Source: Escherichia coli (GTDB lineage: Bacteria > Pseudomonadota > Gammaproteobacteria > Enterobacterales > Enterobacteriaceae). From it: 64,000 nt of DNA. A program made the position numbers and the translations under genes. The stretch lies in assembly GCF_009931435.1 (NCBI RefSeq), contig NZ_CP043414.1, one strand, 5' to 3'. The notes beneath the pieces are model-generated. The model did no database searches. It was not told the origin of the DNA and saw only the letters and a list, made by a program, of their open reading frames with translations. This document shows positions 1 to 10,244 of the stretch, in pieces; positions within the stretch are counted from its first letter, which is position 1, and each line of letters starts with the position of its first letter.

Positions 1-798
<798 letters not shown>

Positions 799-937
799 AA
801 CGTGAGGAAATACCTGGATTTTTCCTGGTTATTTTGCCGCAGGTCAGCGTATCGTGAACATCTTTTCCAGTGTTCAGTATGGTGCCTTGCACGGTAATTA
901 TGTCACTGGTTATTAACCAATTTTTCTTGGGGGATAA

Positions 938-2077
938 ATGAGCGCGGGAAGCCCAAAATTCACCGTTCGCCGCATTGCGGCTTTGTCACTGGTTTCGCTA
1001 TGGCTGGCAGGCTGTTCTGACACTTCAAATCCACCGGCACCGGTCAGCTCCGTTAATGGCAATGCGTCTGCAAACACCAATTCTGGTATGTTGATTACGC
1101 CGCCGCCGAAAATGGGGACGACGTCTACAACGCAGCAACCGCAAATTCAGCCGGTACAGCAGCCACAAATTCAATCTGCACAACAACCGCAAATCCAGCC
1201 GGTGCAGCCAGTTGCTCAGCCGCCGGTACAGATGGAAAACGGACGCATCGTCTACAACCGTCAGTATGGGAACATTCCGAAAGGCAGTTATAGCGGCAGT
1301 ACATACACCGTGAAAAAAGGCGACACACTTTTCTATATCGCCTGGATTACTGGCAATGATTTCCGTGACCTTGCTCAGCGCAACAATATTCAGGCACCAT
1401 ACGCGCTGAATGTAGGTCAGACCTTACAGGTGGGTAATGCTTCCGGTACGCCAATCACTGGTGGAAATGCCATTACCCAGGCCGATGCAGCAGAGCAAGG
1501 AGTTGTGATCAAGCCTGCACAAAATTCCACCGTTGCTGTTGCGTCGCAACCGACAATTACGTATTCTGAGTCTTCGGGTGAACAGAGTGCTAACAAAATG
1601 TTGCCGAACAACAAGCCAACTGGGACCACGGTCACAGCGCCTGTAACGGTACCAACAGCAAGCACAACCGAGCCGACTGTCAGCAGTACATCAACCAGTG
1701 CGCCTATCTCCACCTGGCGCTGGCCGACTGAGGGCAAAGTGATCGAAACCTTTGGTGCTTCTGAGGGGGGTAACAAGGGGATTGATATCGCAGGCAGCAA
1801 AGGACAGGCAATTATCGCGACCGCAGATGGCCGCGTTGTTTATGCCGGTAACGCGCTGCGCGGCTACGGTAATCTGATTATCATCAAACATAATGATGAT
1901 TACCTGAGTGCCTACGCCCATAACGACACAATGCTGGTCCGGGAACAACAAGAAGTGAAGGCGGGGCAAAAAATAGCGACTATGGGTAGCACCGGAACCA
2001 GTTCAACACGCTTGCATTTTGAAATTCGTTACAAGGGGAAATCCGTAAACCCGCTGCGCTATTTGCCGCAGCGATAA
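938..2077 (+). CDS. nlpD: murein hydrolase activator lipoprotein NlpD (LysM + M23/LytM domains)
   Basis: 379-aa ORF with lipoprotein signal (LAGCS), Q/P-rich repeat region, C-terminal M23 peptidase-like domain; lies upstream of rpoS. Confidence 0.95.
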
Positions 2078-2139
2078 ATCGGCGGAACCAGGCTTTTGCT
2101 TGAATGTTCCGTCAAGGGATCACGGGTAGGAGCCACCTT

Positions 2140-3132
2140 ATGAGTCAGAATACGCTGAAAGTTCATGATTTAAATGAAGATGCGGAATTTGATGAGAACG
2201 GAGTTGAGGTTTTTGACGAAAAGGCCTTAGTAGAAGAGGAACCCAGTGATAACGATTTGGCCTAAGAGGAACTGTTATCGCAAGGGGCCACACAGCGTGT
2301 GTTGGACGCGACTCAGCTTTACCTTGGTGAGATTGGTTATTCACCACTGTTAACGGCCGAAGAAGAAGTTTATTTTGCGCGTCGCGCACTGCGAGGAGAT
2401 GTTGCCTCCCGCCGCCGGATGATCGAGAGTAACTTGCGTCTGGTGGTAAAAATTGCCCGCCGTTATGGCAATCGTGGTCTGGCTTTGCTGGATCTTATCG
2501 AAGAGGGCAACCTGGGGCTGATCCGCGCGGTAGAGAAGTTTGACCCGGAACGTGGTTTCCGCTTCTCAACATACGCAACCTGGTGGATTCGCCAGACGAT
2601 CGAACGGGCGATTATGAACCAAACCCGTACTATTCGTTTGCCGATTCACATCGTAAAGGAGCTGAACGTTTACCTGCGAACCGCACGTGAGTTGTCCCAT
2701 AAGCTGGACCACGAACCAAGTGCGGAAGAGATCGCAGAGCAGCTGGATAAGCCAGTTGATGACGTCAGCCGTATGCTTCGTCTTAACGAGCGCATTACCT
2801 CGGTAGACACCCCGCTGGGTGGAGATTCCGAAAAAGCGTTGCTGGACATCCTGGCCGATGAAAAAGAAAACGGCCCGGAAGATACCACGCAAGATGACGA
2901 TATGAAACAAAGCATCGTCAAATGGCTGTTCGAACTGAACGCCAAACAGCGTGAAGTGCTGGCACGTCGATTCGGTTTGCTGGGGTACGAAGCGGCAACA
3001 CTGGAAGATGTAGGTCGTGAAATTGGCCTCACCCGTGAACGTGTTCGCCAGATTCAGGTTGAAGGCCTGCGCCGTTTGCGCGAAATCCTGCAAACGCAGG
3101 GGCTGAATATCGAAGCGCTGTTCCGCGAATAA
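2140..3132 (+). pseudogene. rpoS: RNA polymerase sigma factor RpoS reading frame interrupted by an in-frame ochre codon (TAA at 2263-2265, codon 42); an in-frame GTG at 2299 opens a 277-codon ORF covering sigma regions 1.2-4
   Basis: ATG 2140 translates [41 protein letters not shown] then TAA; the ORF track only opens at 2299 in the same frame; the rest matches RpoS (…[15 protein letters not shown]…). Confidence 0.85.
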
Positions 3133-3148
3133 GTAAGCATCTGTCAGA

Positions 3149-3181
3149 AAGGCCAGTCTCTTATGAGGCTGGCCTTTTTCT
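3149..3181 (+). terminator. rho-independent terminator downstream of rpoS
   Basis: Inverted repeat aaaggccagtctc/ttatgaggctggccttt followed by a T-run. Confidence 0.7.
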
Positions 3182-3252
3182 TTTGTATGGGGAGTTGGTG
3201 TGTTTCGTCGCCTGGATAAGACACGTCAGCGTCCCATCCGGCAATCAACATC

Positions 3253-3660
3253 CTATTTGCTCATCATCTTGCGCACCAGCTGCATAAACAGCTCCTGCTC
3301 TTCTCCACTCAAACGCCCCAAAAATTCCTCATCCACACTGTCGCCAATCGGTATCGCCGCAGCAAGTACCTTTTCTCCTTCGGCAGTCAGCCAGACAAAG
3401 CGTCGCCGCTTATCAGCGGTGTCATGTTCACGTCTGACTAAGCCACGATTTTCCATTCTTGCCAACATTTCTGCCAGCGTTGCTTTGGTGCTGACGGCTG
3501 CTTCCATCAGTGCCACCTGTTCGATACCAGGTTTATCAGCAATGGCGCGCATCACCGCGTACTGTGGTTTGGTCAGGTCAGGTAACTCGTGCTGCCAGCG
3601 GGCCGTATGCTGCTGAAAAAGCTGTCGTAACTGATGGAACGCTTTATTTCGTAACGCCAT
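3253..3660 (-). CDS. hosA: MarR/SlyA-family transcriptional regulator (HosA-like)
   Basis: 135-aa ORF with winged-helix MarR-like sequence; sits divergently upstream of the UbiX/UbiD decarboxylase genes, the arrangement described for hosA in pathogenic E. coli. Confidence 0.65.
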   Translation of the reverse strand: MALRNKAFHQLRQLFQQHTARWQHELPDLTKPQYAVMRAIADKPGIEQVALMEAAVSTKATLAEMLARMENRGLVRREHDTADKRRRFVWLTAEGEKVLAAAIPIGDSVDEEFLGRLSGEEQELFMQLVRKMMSK

Positions 3661-3806
3661 GTAAACTCCGGGCTAATTCTCTGTCGCTATCATAGCGGTT
3701 TTTCAGTGACGAAGAAGATGTTGTTACTTTTCAATCCTTGCCGCTGTGGAAATGAAGGAGTATGTTAATAATAACGTTCGTATACGAACAATTAAGAGAG
3801 TAAGCA

Positions 3807-4400
3807 ATGAAACTGATCGTCGGGATGACAGGGGCTACCGGTGCGCCTCTTGGTGTGGCATTACTGCAAGCGTTGCGCGAAATGCCGGATGTCGAGACTC
3901 ATCTGGTGATGTCGAAGTGGGCGAAAACCACTATTGAACTGGAAACGCCTTACAGCGCTCGCGATGTTGCCGCCCTCGCTGACTTCAGCCATAACCCGGC
4001 GGATCAGGCTGCGACCATCTCTTCCGGCTCCTTTCGTACCGACGGCATGATCGTTATTCCATGCAGTATGAAAACGCTCGCCGGTATCCGCGCTGGTTAC
4101 GCCGATGGTCTCGTAGGGCGCGCGGCGGACGTCGTGCTCAAAGAAGGCCGCAAACTGGTGCTGGTGCCGCGTGAAATGCCGCTTAGCACCATCCATCTCG
4201 AAAATATGCTCGCACTTTCGCGCATGGGCGTGGCGATGGTGCCGCCGATGCCTGCCTTTTATAACCATCCCGAAACGGTAGATGACATTGTCCACCACGT
4301 GGTAGCCCGCGTGCTGGATCAATTTGGCCTCGAACATCCTCACGCCAGGCGCTGGCAAGGGTTGCCGCAGGCCCGGAATTTTTCTCAGGAGAATGAATAA
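3807..4400 (+). CDS. ecdB: UbiX/Pad1-family flavin prenyltransferase (decarboxylase subunit B)
   Basis: 197-aa ORF MKLIVGMTGATGAPLGV..., flavoprotein fold typical of UbiX/Pad1; stop overlaps the next start (ATGA), indicating an operon. Confidence 0.75.
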   Translation: MKLIVGMTGATGAPLGVALLQALREMPDVETHLVMSKWAKTTIELETPYSARDVAALADFSHNPADQAATISSGSFRTDGMIVIPCSMKTLAGIRAGYADGLVGRAADVVLKEGRKLVLVPREMPLSTIHLENMLALSRMGVAMVPPMPAFYNHPETVDDIVHHVVARVLDQFGLEHPHARRWQGLPQARNFSQENE

Positions 4401-5827
4401 TGGCATTTGATGATTTACGCAGCTTCTTACAGGCGCTTGATGACCACGGCCAGTTACTGAAAATCAGCGAAGAGGTGAACGCGGAACCGGATCTGGCAGC
4501 CGCTGCCAACGCCACCGGGCGTATCGGCGACGGCGCGCCCGCGCTGTGGTTTGATAATATTCGCGGCTTTATCGATGCCCGCGTTGCAATGAACACCATC
4601 GGTTCCTGGCAGAACCACGCAATTTCTCTCGGTCTGCCGCCAAACACCCCGGTTAAAAAACAGATTGATGAGTTTATCCGCCGCTGGGATAACTTCCCGA
4701 TAGCCCCGGAGCGCCGTGCGAATCCTGCCTGGGCGCAGAACACCGTCGATGGCGACGAGATCAATTTGTTCAATATCCTGCCGCTGTTTCGTTTAAACGA
4801 TGGCGATGGCGGTTTCTATCTCGACAAAGCGTGCGTGGTTTCCCGCGATCCGCTCGATCCGGATAACTTCGGCAAGCAGAACGTCGGCATCTATCGCATG
4901 GAAGTGAAGGGTAAGCGTAAGCTCGGCCTGCAACCGGTGCCGATGCACGATATCGCCCTGCATCTGCATAAAGCGGAAGAACGTGGTGAAGATTTGCCAA
5001 TTGCCATCACGCTGGGTAACGATCCGATCATCACCCTGATGGGCGCCACCCCGCTGAAATATGATCAATCGGAGTACGAAATGGCGGGCGCGCTACGCGA
5101 AAGCCCGTACCCGATCGCCACCGCCCCGCTGACCGGTTTTGATGTGCCGTGGGGTTCAGAAGTGATCCTCGAAGGGGTTATCGAAAGCCGCAAACGTGAA
5201 ATCGAAGGGCCGTTCGGTGAGTTTACCGGGCACTACTCCGGTGGGCGCAACATGACCGTAGTGCGCATCGATAAAGTCTCTTACCGCACCAAACCGATTT
5301 TTGAATCGCTCTATCTCGGCATGCCGTGGACCGAAATCGACTACCTGATGGGGCCTGCCACCTGCGTGCCGCTTTACCAGCAGTTGAAAGCCGAGTTCCC
5401 GGAAGTGCAGGCGGTGAACGCTATGTACACCCACGGCCTGCTGGCGATTATCTCCACCAAAAAACGCTATGGCGGCTTTGCCCGCGCAGTGGGCCTGCGT
5501 GCGATGACCACGCCGCACGGTCTGGGTTATGTGAAGATGGTGATTATGGTCGATGAAGACGTTGACCCGTTCAACCTGCCGCAGGTGATGTGGGCGCTCT
5601 CTTCGAAAGTGAACCCGGCAGGGGATCTGGTGCAGTTGCCGAATATGTCAGTACTGGAACTCGACCCTGGCTCAAGCCCGGCGGGGATCACCGACAAGCT
5701 GATTATCGACGCCACTACGCCTGTCGCCCCGGACAACCGTGGTCACTACAGCCAGCCGGTGGTGGACTTACCGGAAACCAAAGCCTGGGCTGAAAAACTG
5801 ACCGCTATGCTGGCCGCACGTAAATAA
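4400..5827 (+). CDS. ecdC: UbiD-family reversible hydroxyarylic-acid decarboxylase (subunit C)
   Basis: 475-aa ORF; UbiD-like length and sequence; directly follows the UbiX-like gene. Confidence 0.75.
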   Translation: MAFDDLRSFLQALDDHGQLLKISEEVNAEPDLAAAANATGRIGDGAPALWFDNIRGFIDARVAMNTIGSWQNHAISLGLPPNTPVKKQIDEFIRRWDNFPIAPERRANPAWAQNTVDGDEINLFNILPLFRLNDGDGGFYLDKACVVSRDPLDPDNFGKQNVGIYRMEVKGKRKLGLQPVPMHDIALHLHKAEERGEDLPIAITLGNDPIITLMGATPLKYDQSEYEMAGALRESPYPIATAPLTGFDVPWGSEVILEGVIESRKREIEGPFGEFTGHYSGGRNMTVVRIDKVSYRTKPIFESLYLGMPWTEIDYLMGPATCVPLYQQLKAEFPEVQAVNAMYTHGLLAIISTKKRYGGFARAVGLRAMTTPHGLGYVKMVIMVDEDVDPFNLPQVMWALSSKVNPAGDLVQLPNMSVLELDPGSSPAGITDKLIIDATTPVAPDNRGHYSQPVVDLPETKAWAEKLTAMLAARK

Positions 5828-7565: not shown

Positions 7566-8342
7566 TTAGCGCCAGGCGTCAAACCAGCCAAGCCCTTCTT
7601 CGGTGAGGCCTCGAGGTTTATATTCACAACCGATCCAGCCCTGATATCCCACCTCATCGAACAGGCGGAACAGCCACGGATAGTTGATTTCTCCATCGTC
7701 CGGTTCATGTCGATCAGGTAGTCCGGCAATTTGTACGTGCGCATATTTCCCGGCGTAGTCGCGGATTAAATGCGTCAGGTTGCCATCTACTTTTTGCGCA
7801 TGGAAAGTATCTAGTTGAATAAACACGTTATCTCGCGCAACCTCTTCAACAATAGCCAGTGCCTGATACTGGCTGGAGAAGAGATAATGAGGCTTAACGC
7901 CGGGGCTGAGTGCTTCAACCAATATTCGCTTGCCGTGTGGCGCAAAGCGGTCGGCAGCGTAGCGGAGATTATCAATAAATACTGCCCGGTACCGTTCAGC
8001 ATCTTCGCCAGCGGGCACGACGCCTGCCATCACATGGACTTGTTCACAATTGAGCGCCAATGCATATTCCAGTGCCAGGTCGATGTCTGCGCGTGCTTCG
8101 TGCTCACGTCCAGGAAGGGCGGATAATCCCCATTCTCCCGCATTAATATCTCCGGGAGCGGTATTGAACAGCGCCAGTGTCAGATGGTTTTGCACCAGTT
8201 GCTTTTGGATTTGCAGGGGGGAGTAGTCATAGGGAAACAGAAATTCCACGGCATCAAACCCGGCTTTTCGCGCTGCGGCGAAGCGTTCAATAAAAGGCAC
8301 TTCGGTGAACATCATGGATAAATTAGCTGCAAAACGAGGCAT
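7566..8342 (-). CDS. ygbM: 2-oxo-tetronate isomerase (hydroxypyruvate-isomerase-like TIM barrel)
   Basis: 258-aa ORF, Hyi-family-like; ygbJKLM cluster. Confidence 0.85.
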
Positions 8343-8346
8343 TGCA

Positions 8347-8985
8347 TTAACTCCTTAATTCCGCAATTTCACCTGCGGTCAGATAACGGATCGGGCGGTC
8401 ACCGAGAATAAAAATCAGCTTTGCCGTTTCCTCCAGCTCTTCCATATTATTGGCGGCTTCTTGCAGGCTTTCACCGCAAACCACTGGGCCATGATTTGCC
8501 AGTAAAAAAGCCTGATTGTCTGCTGCCAGTTCCGCCAGATCCTGTGCGATGCGTTTATCGCCCGGTCGGTAATAAGGCACCAGCGGGATATTTCCCATCC
8601 GCATCACCACGTATGGTGTGAACGGACGAATAACGTTGCTGCTGTCCAGCCCTTGCAGGCAGGAAAGCGCCGTCGACCACGTACTGTGCAAATGCACCAC
8701 CGCTTTACAGCGCGGATTGTTGCGATACAGCGCCAGATGAAAGAGCACCTCTTTCGAGGGTTTGTCACCACTTAACCATTCGCCATCCGCGGTGACTTTG
8801 GAAAGCCGCTGCGGATCGAGATTGCCCAGGCATGAACCTGTCGGTGTCGCCAGTAAATTCCCGTCAGGTAAAAGCAGCGACAGATTGCCAGCCGAACCGG
8901 TTGCATAGCCGCGCTGAAAGAATGAACTGGCAATCCGCGTCATCTCCTCTCGCAAAGACTGCTCTACTTTTGCGAAATCGCTCAT
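8347..8985 (-). CDS. ygbL: class II aldolase/adducin-family 3-oxo-tetronate 4-phosphate decarboxylase
   Basis: 212-aa ORF; class II aldolase-like; cluster context. Confidence 0.85.
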
Positions 8986-10244
8986 GATAAAAACTCTCTT
9001 TGGGCTCGTGAAAAAAAGGCTTCATCACCGAAGTTGCCAGATTTAAGGGCGAGTGAGACAGGCTTATCCAGTGCGTTTACCCACGGCACGCCGGGGGAAA
9101 TGGTTGGGCCAATATGAAACCCTTTTATTCCCAGGCTCTGTGTGACTACGCCGGAGGTCTCACCGCCTGCGACAATAAAGCGTGTCACGCCTTCCGCTGC
9201 TAACCGCGCCGCTAGTTGAGAAAACAGTGTTTCTACTGCCTGACTGGCTTTTTGTGCACCGTATTGCTGTTGAATTGCTGCCAGTGCGTCAGTGCTGGCG
9301 GTGGCAAAAACCAGTGGAGCAAGTACACTTTCCTGGCCCAGAACCCACTCTGCCAGCTCGTGTGCATAAGCGGCCAGAGTTTCGGTTGAGAGGCAGCGTG
9401 CCACATCAACTTCACGGGCTGGTGCAATTTGACGGTAATGTGCTACCTGGCGGTTGGTCATTTGAGAGCATGAACCGGAGAGCACTACGCCGCGCCCAGC
9501 GAGCGGATGCCCTGCTTTGCGAGCCTGGTTACCGTTTTCTTGCGCCCACTGCCGGGCAAGGCCAATCGCCAGACCAGAACCGCCCGTTACCAGTGGGGCA
9601 TCGCGCAAGGCTTCTCCCTGAATTTCCAGATGGTGTTCGGTCAGCGCATCAAGCACCGCGTAGCGGTAGCCCTCTTGCTGTAAGCGAGCCAGCTCTTGAC
9701 GAACGGCATCCACACCTTGTTCGAAAATATGTGCCGAAACGACGCCGCAGCGCCCTGTGGATTGCGCTTCAACCAGACGGGGAAGATAGCTGTCGGTCAT
9801 GGGATTTACCGGGTGATGGCGCATCCCGGATTCGGCCAGCAGTTGATTCATTACGAACAAATACCCCTGATAAACCGTACGTCCGTTGACCGGCAGGGCC
9901 GGAGAGAAGACCGTAAACGGCGTGTCGAGAGCATCCATTAATGCATCGGTAACCGGGCCGATATTACCTTTCGCCGTACTGTCGAAAGTAGAGCAGTATT
10001 TGAAATAGATCTGTTTGCAACCTTGCTGTTGCAACCAGCTCAGAGCCGCCAGCGATTGCTGTGTGGCTTCAACCACCGGACAGGAACGCGTTTTCAGGCT
10101 GATCACCAGTGCGTCGATTGCTTCCGGCATTTTACCTGTTGGAACACCGTTAATTTGTACCGTTGGTAGACCGTTTTCCACCAGAAAACTGGCGATATCC
10201 GTCGCGCCGGTAAAATCATCAGCGATAACGCCAATCTTGATCAT
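8982..10244 (-). CDS. ygbK: four-carbon acid sugar kinase (3-oxo-tetronate kinase)
   Basis: 420-aa ORF; start overlaps ygbL stop; cluster context. Confidence 0.85.
   Translation of the reverse strand: MIKIGVIADDFTGATDIASFLVENGLPTVQINGVPTGKMPEAIDALVISLKTRSCPVVEATQQSLAALSWLQQQGCKQIYFKYCSTFDSTAKGNIGPVTDALMDALDTPFTVFSPALPVNGRTVYQGYLFVMNQLLAESGMRHHPVNPMTDSYLPRLVEAQSTGRCGVVSAHIFEQGVDAVRQELARLQQEGYRYAVLDALTEHHLEIQGEALRDAPLVTGGSGLAIGLARQWAQENGNQARKAGHPLAGRGVVLSGSCSQMTNRQVAHYRQIAPAREVDVARCLSTETLAAYAHELAEWVLGQESVLAPLVFATASTDALAAIQQQYGAQKASQAVETLFSQLAARLAAEGVTRFIVAGGETSGVVTQSLGIKGFHIGPTISPGVPWVNALDKPVSLALKSGNFGDEAFFSRAQREFLS

Follow-up and report, generated by a model that had tools for sequence, protein, structure and literature searches.

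The pcm-nlpD-rpoS locus

The window analysed here is a stretch of 64,000 nucleotides from Escherichia coli (contig NZ_CP043414.1, assembly GCF_009931435.1), and the features described lie on its plus strand unless stated otherwise. Its list of open reading frames places pcm at 172-798 and nlpD at 938-2077, the latter in agreement with the annotation of homologues, and these are followed by rpoS, whose ATG at 2140 was read from the same list and from the sequence. RefSeq records annotate the identical order pcm-nlpD-rpoS, and the matching DNA is labelled nlpD in 5,420 of 5,426 complete E. coli genomes. Translation from ATG 938 gives a product of 379 aa, as long as the UniProt proteins of the NLPD_ECOLI type in our collection, whereas the RefSeq/PGAP nlpD records start at the in-frame TTG 983, located 45 nt further 3', and give a product of 364 aa. 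NlpD lengths in databases are therefore 15 aa apart for one and the same allele.

The translated product has a signal peptide with a lipobox, L-A-G-C at residues 23-26 (1004-1015; ...SLWLAGC at residues 20-26), in which Cys26 is the lipidated residue. Pfam recognizes a LysM domain at residues 123-165 (1304-1432, E 2.6e-12) and a degenerate LytM domain of the Peptidase_M23 family at residues 279-372 (1772-2053, E 4.6e-33). Active M23 enzymes carry the motifs HxxxD and HxH, with the catalytic His of both; in the NlpD translation these are replaced by NKGIDI and RLHFE, so the active site is degenerate. [quoted passage not shown]

Two further elements were observed around the repeat region of nlpD. 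A (CCG)3 run encoding Pro55-57 (1100-1108), just 5' of the repeat array, is a separate 3-bp slippage site, and comparison of strains showed that one CCG is gone in strain A30, isolated from a baboon. On the minus strand, an open reading frame of 67 aa with a GTG start (1125-1328) overlaps the repeat; it lies wholly within conserved nlpD and is unsupported as a gene.

The octapeptide repeat of NlpD

The original prediction of three in-frame 24-bp units inside nlpD, including the gene assignment and the translations, agrees with both the sequence and the list of open reading frames; the units were exact, except that the array starts at 1133 (codon 66), one base before the proposed 1134. Inspection of the sequence and a tandem-repeat search define repeat unit 1 (U1) as CAGCAACCGCAAATTCAGCCGGTA (1133-1156), encoding QQPQIQPV, and repeat unit 3 (U3) as CAACAACCGCAAATCCAGCCGGTG (1181-1204), also encoding QQPQIQPV. 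Between them lies the diverged middle unit, U2, CAGCAGCCACAAATTCAATCTGCA (1157-1180), which encodes QQPQIQSA here and QQPQIQAT in K-12. The array is followed by a degenerate tail, QPVAQPPVQ (1205-1231), and a nested 9-bp mini-repeat, CAGCCGGTG/CAGCCAGTT (1196-1213, QPV QPV), is found in one, two or three copies across strains. Repeat and tail together make up residues 66-98, between Cys26 and the LysM domain that begins at residue 123.

At the DNA level U1 and U3 are identical at 21/24 positions and share an 11-nt block, CAACCGCAAAT, while U1/U2 match at 18/24 and U2/U3 at 15/24. Tandem Repeats Finder reported positions 1133-1208 with period 24, 3.2 copies, 69% matches and a score of 89, the sole array in 1-4000, and a second repeat search returned the same three copies with 24/24 spacing. 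The self-match at a lag of 24 nt (33/48) is the highest in nlpD; none of 300 whole-gene codon shuffles reached it (their maximum was 30), as against 2 of 300 when only the Q/P-rich codons 60-100 were shuffled.

An imperfect 24-nt direct repeat (1108-1131 and 1235-1258) flanks the array, with 75% identity between its copies, a 9-nt exact match (GTCTACAAC) and a spacing of 127 bp. We do not consider this pair meaningful: it is probably due to chance, a deletion from one copy to the other would be out of frame, and no such deletion was seen.

The NlpD octapeptide repeat is an already known feature. A Gln/Pro "unusual amino acid repeat" was described in 1994 (Ichikawa et al., J Bacteriol 176:1630), going by the title of that report and by a later paper that cites it (PMC2736372); the citing paper gives the Pro/Gln-rich region as present in NlpD of E. 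coli and Salmonella and entirely absent in Yersinia. The window allele shares with the K-12 repeat (Ichikawa et al. 1994; Lange & Hengge-Aronis 1994) the gene, the position, the three QQPQIQxx units, the QPV tail and the pcm-nlpD-rpoS context. It differs by Thr65 in place of Ala, by SA in place of AT at the end of unit 2, and by QPPVQ in place of QQPVQ, and over the entire nlpD gene 29 of 1,140 nt differ from K-12.

Unit number in complete E. coli genomes

Unit number could be scored in 5,418 of the 5,426 complete E. coli genomes surveyed, and about 5,356 of these (~98.8%) have three units. A 94-nt query spanning the junction of a one-unit allele detected 61 genomes at E<=1e-28, a limit that keeps out the partial matches of three-unit genomes; a separate one-unit query aligned end to end with real genomes. 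As a cross-check, queries spanning the array left 63 records with less than 80% coverage, which correspond to the 61 genomes plus two partial records that recur in every search. Identity bands were unusable for counting alleles with one or five units, given that three-unit genomes align as two joined pieces at 99%. The corresponding junction query for five units found a single genome, that of strain PapRG-04-4, with 48 additional bp. Synthetic alleles with two or four units on the K-12 background had no counterpart among the 5,426 genomes, a search in which any such allele at >=93% identity would outrank the gapped three-unit matches.

The prevalence of the three-unit form is also seen in an even-step sample of 60 of the 5,420 genomes, where 59/59 full-coverage rows are of equal length within 3 bp. 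In RM9387, a divergent strain with only a partial alignment, there are also three units, with one extra codon just 5' of the array. At the nested 9-bp repeat, one QPV is lost in seven genomes (-9 bp) and four genomes have gained 9 bp. Every length change seen, of 48, 9 or 3 bp, keeps the reading frame, so no on/off switching by frameshift takes place. The expectation that copy number may vary between strains by misalignment is thus borne out by the 61 genomes with one unit and the one with five, and the number is not uniform across the complete genomes.

The same alleles can be recognized in a protein collection. Two protein forms of 363 aa with one unit are each found on at least 1,000 contigs, a form of 360 aa with one unit and a single QPV on 7, the -9 bp form of 376 aa on 633, the +9 bp form of 382 aa on 234, and the five-unit form of 395 aa on 6 contigs; the five-unit allele is therefore not an artefact of a single assembly. 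The exact NlpD protein of the window is found on 307 contigs.

Lineages that carry the 48-bp deletion

The 48-bp deletion is characteristic of a small number of lineages, one of them the O157:H7 subgroup SG 8_30 of the spinach outbreak. All 12 closed genomes of this clade-8 subgroup (Table 2 of PMC9997748) are among the one-unit genomes: TW14359, EC4115, SS17, SS52, JEONG-1266, 147, 2009C-3378, 2009C-4687, 2010C-3142, CEC96047, 8_140198 and 26_141088. The 23 genomes of SG 8_31A/B, 8_32 and 8_33 are all absent from this set, a contrast checked directly in one three-unit clade-8 genome, CEC08123 (SG 8_32), whose nlpD of 1,095 bp encodes the same protein as the three-unit form of Z1825, and taken from the list of one-unit genomes for the other subgroups. 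The sources of the one-unit protein of 363 aa also include Shigella flexneri, S. dysenteriae and S. boydii; in Shigella-labelled loci the same chimeric single unit is found on a further haplotype.

An incomplete literature search found no prior report of a 48-bp deletion in nlpD, which is weak evidence of novelty. What is added to the known feature is small: a U1/U3 deletion that recurs and has become fixed in O157:H7 SG 8_30.

The haplotype of the window itself is uncommon in this region: only 8 of the 5,420 genomes are at least 99% identical to it over 1034-1330. Over positions 1-2830, 42-49 SNPs in 2.6 kb separate it from K-12, O157 and the rest of the haplotypes sampled, and strain 2020CK-00188 is 6 SNPs away in 2.83 kb.

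A flexible tether or a binding motif

The repeat is the C-terminal third of a low-complexity tether (residues 27 to ~115) that connects Cys26 to the LysM domain. P, Q, S, T, N, G and A make up 79% of residues 27-98, which have no aromatics, a composition that fits disorder, and the N-terminal linker of NlpD has been predicted as disordered by DISOPRED (PMC5533458). An AlphaFold model built on an alignment of 38 sequences shows the linker without secondary structure, but it is poor everywhere except in LysM (mean pLDDT 38, M23 below 40) and lends the DISOPRED prediction no independent support. The repeat is part of a linker like those described for the outer-membrane lipoproteins RcsF, Pal and NlpD (El Rayes et al., bioRxiv 10.1101/2021.01.05.425367), low in complexity and rich in Pro and Gln; most disordered linkers of such lipoproteins, unlike that of NlpD, are not tandem repeats. 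In that work, about 60% of an NlpD variant without residues 29-64 was kept in the inner membrane, and the variant did not rescue the chaining of an envC nlpD strain. The published deletion ends just before the repeat (66-98).

According to these data, it is likely that the known repeat of the NlpD tether is a near-neutral spacer, stable at three units, which now and again undergoes a two-unit change between U1 and U3. The repeat would act mainly as a flexible spacer that gives LysM and dLytM their reach from the outer membrane, it may also aid Lol-dependent sorting, and changes of 16 aa in its length would be close to neutral.

Comparison of 80 Enterobacteriaceae species indicates how far the repeat is conserved. 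The exact triplet of QQPQIQ units is found only in Escherichia, with three copies in E. whittamii and two further Escherichia species and four copies in E. albertii, the latter on 40 contigs. Other genera have a degenerate version, such as QQTPQIQPVQRPxTQPTQIQPV, and some have small expansions of their own: Kosakonia cowanii, for instance, has (QPV)4, and a Citrobacter has (PVQTA)3. The distance from the lipidated Cys to the conserved NGRIVYNR motif varies from 59 to 85 aa across the 80 species, so a change of 16 aa is within the natural range. The peptide is better conserved than the DNA that encodes it: in the 72-bp array, the window and E. whittamii have seven differences in synonymous codon pairs and none that changes an amino acid, and the window and RM9387 have eight synonymous differences and one that changes an amino acid. 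A motif PQIQ[PSA][VIAM] is present in 61/80 species. This strong synonymous bias, together with the wide distribution of the motif, points to more constraint than a pure spacer needs, and counts against the spacer reading.

The octapeptide, with PQIQPV as its core, could instead be a short linear binding motif for a partner in midcell recruitment, sorting or regulation, with unit number tuning avidity and not just length. Besides the invariance of QQPQIQ across Escherichia lineages and the motif found in most of the species compared, this proposal is favoured by the weak midcell enrichment of a fusion containing only the N-terminal linker (PMC5533458). However, the motif is without a known partner, the region is missing from Yersinia NlpD, and alleles with a single unit have become fixed in successful lineages, as in O157:H7 SG 8_30 and Shigella-labelled genomes. 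We regard a binding motif as unlikely, although it has a better standing than the other alternatives considered below.

Origin of the two-unit changes

The array is an old in-frame triplication whose DNA copies drifted at synonymous sites while the QQPQIQ peptide stayed invariant across Escherichia. Misalignment between U1 and U3 removes or adds exactly two units (48 bp, 16 aa), and U2 is too diverged to pair with the neighbouring units. Only two-unit steps are seen because U1 and U3 are still 21/24 identical and U2 has diverged. The single unit of the one-unit alleles begins as U1 and continues as U3, with the switch (CAGCAACCGCAAAT|CCAGCCAGTG) falling inside their shared 11-nt block, and the five-unit allele holds the reciprocal chimera, CAACAACCGCAAAT|TCAGCCGGTG. 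The misalignment probably occurs by replication slippage or unequal exchange. The nested 9-bp QPV repeat gains or loses one copy.

The one-unit alleles occur on several backgrounds, with at least six haplotypes among the 12 loci sampled. TW14359, an O157:H7 strain with one unit, shows no difference in 2,613 shared columns from Z1825, an O157:H7 strain with three, and differs from the other one-unit haplotypes by 13-19 SNPs. Similarly, PEC145 (one unit) is only 4 SNPs from K-12 (three units). Upstream of the unit, the nearest SNP between the one-unit alleles of TW14359 and ECCWS199 is 55 bp away, and downstream it is 123 bp away; a shared origin would thus require an import of less than ~200 bp. 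Recurrent deletion is a simpler reading of these sequences than a single origin.

It could be argued that the one-unit allele arose once and was then spread among backgrounds by homologous recombination. All 61 genomes share one junction with each other and with the Shigella-labelled loci, and the neighbouring mutS-rpoS region has been described as mosaic (PMC4209514). On the other hand, the 11-nt block is the sole identity block and forces the junction, so independent events would also be expected to give the same one. Considering also the identity of TW14359 over 2.6 kb to a three-unit O157:H7 strain and the very short tract that import would need, we find a single origin improbable, somewhat more so than the binding motif.

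The repeat as a typing marker

The array resembles the in-frame coding VNTRs used in MLVA in having a tandem in-frame unit whose copy number shifts by misalignment. It differs from them in that its copies are degenerate (62-88% identical), variation is rare (~1%) and steps are of two units. In our literature search we found no listing of nlpD as an E. coli VNTR locus.

That copy number varies among strains, that the deletion is recurrent and that the 9-bp sub-repeat varies too could be taken as signs of a hypervariable VNTR, or contingency-type locus, useful for general strain typing. Such a role is already largely refuted, and we hold it to be quite unlikely. Unit number has only the states 1, 3 and 5, with a Simpson D of ~0.02, neighbouring units are just 15-18/24 identical, and the in-frame changes preclude phase switching. 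Inheritance also appears to be clonal and not a product of rapid change: four one-unit strains, from four hosts that include chicken, human and frog and from China, Cambodia and Indonesia, are 1-2 SNPs apart over 10.3 kb and 25 SNPs from K-12, forming a clone-like group, and the 12 SG 8_30 genomes, collected between 1996 and 2014, share one allele. The suggestion that the repeat might serve as a typing marker thus holds for particular lineages, such as SG 8_30, and not in general, where nearly all genomes have the same number of units.

Possible selection on tether length

The 16-residue loss is fixed in O157:H7 clade-8 SG 8_30 and common in Shigella-labelled genomes. One possible reading is that tether length is under selection, with the recurrent loss being adaptive, and not neutral, in host-associated pathogens, the PQIQPV core functional and its copy number of consequence. 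If so, the reach of NlpD to septal peptidoglycan and AmiC, or its sorting or regulation, would be altered. We give this proposal very little credence, and near-neutral change in spacer length remains the preferred reading.

A comparable small change is known from S. Typhimurium UK-1, in which nlpD has a 12-bp in-frame deletion (PMC3391293). Like the 48-bp deletion in E. coli it is small, strain-specific, in frame and outside the rpoS promoter; it belongs to another species and is of another length, and the Salmonella repeat is only a degenerate version.

The repeat and the rpoS leader

Transcription of rpoS starts mainly from a promoter within nlpD, with the -35 element at -601 to -596, the -10 element at -578 to -573 and the transcription start at -568 to -566 relative to the rpoS ATG (PMC1852560), and the rpoS 5' UTR is 567 nt long (PMC10948607). 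Mapped to ATG 2140, the published positions place the promoter at 1539-1574 of the window, with the -35 TTGCGT at 1539-1544, the -10 TATTCT at 1562-1567 and the start at about 1572-1574. This mapping is confirmed by primer RpoS 8 (-657 to -636, PMC1852560), which aligns at window positions 1483-1504. A scan of 800-2200 for the sigma-70 consensus returned no promoter, the published rpoSp included, whose -35 TTGCGT has 3/6 consensus matches. With its last base at 1231, the repeat lies ~340 nt upstream of this start, and the original prediction that it forms part of the long rpoS leader consequently fails. The nlpD-rpoS bicistronic transcript is present at a low level (PMC10948607), and only by this route does the repeat reach rpoS mRNA.

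Even though the repeat is cotranscribed with rpoS on this bicistronic mRNA, a role at the RNA level within the rpoS 5' leader is extremely improbable, as the regulated 567-nt leader begins downstream of the repeat, Rfam has no match to 800-2400 at E<=1, positions 1090-1260 hold no inverted repeat, and the 12-bp nlpD deletion of UK-1, outside the promoter, was judged unlikely to affect rpoS by the authors of that genome (PMC3391293).

The rpoS allele of the window and its downstream region

The rpoS gene of the window has an in-frame TAA at codon 42 (2263-2265) in place of the GAA (Glu42) of K-12 and of the near-identical strain 2020CK-00188, which makes the window strain an rpoS nonsense mutant. 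What is left of the open reading frame begins with GTG at 2299, codon 54, and encodes 277 aa; GTG54 is the secondary start known from rpoS amber mutants. An identical split of rpoS into 29 aa and 277 aa is called in a genome labelled Shigella dysenteriae. In CEC08123 (NZ_AP026110.1), the gene at the rpoS position (8277-8996 of the extracted locus, L104) is annotated as 'sigma-70 family RNA polymerase sigma factor' and measures 720 bp instead of the usual 993 bp, which suggests another truncated rpoS allele.

Downstream of rpoS, the window has a gene for a MarR-family regulator on the minus strand (3253-3660) and two genes for a non-oxidative hydroxyarylic acid decarboxylase, subunit B at 3807-4400 and subunit C at 4400-5827. 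The segment 3253-5827 corresponds to the rpoS-mutS variable region of the O157:H7 type, as annotated in CEC08123, and not to the K-12 type, in which ygbN is beside rpoS.

Implications

The presence of the repeat in itself changes nothing in the understanding of NlpD, of which it has been a textbook detail since 1994, and the idea that it is a segment inside the regulated rpoS leader is corrected here. The exclusive occurrence of two-unit steps offers a clean natural case in which the divergence of repeat copies dictates which rearrangements take place. In practice, the 48-bp deletion is a simple marker, of a size suited to PCR, that separates SG 8_30 from the three-unit clade-8 genome CEC08123 and, going by the list of one-unit genomes, from the other subgroups. 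Moreover, the natural variants of NlpD with one, three and five units could be used to ask whether the length or the sequence of the tether matters for the sorting of this lipoprotein and for amidase activation.
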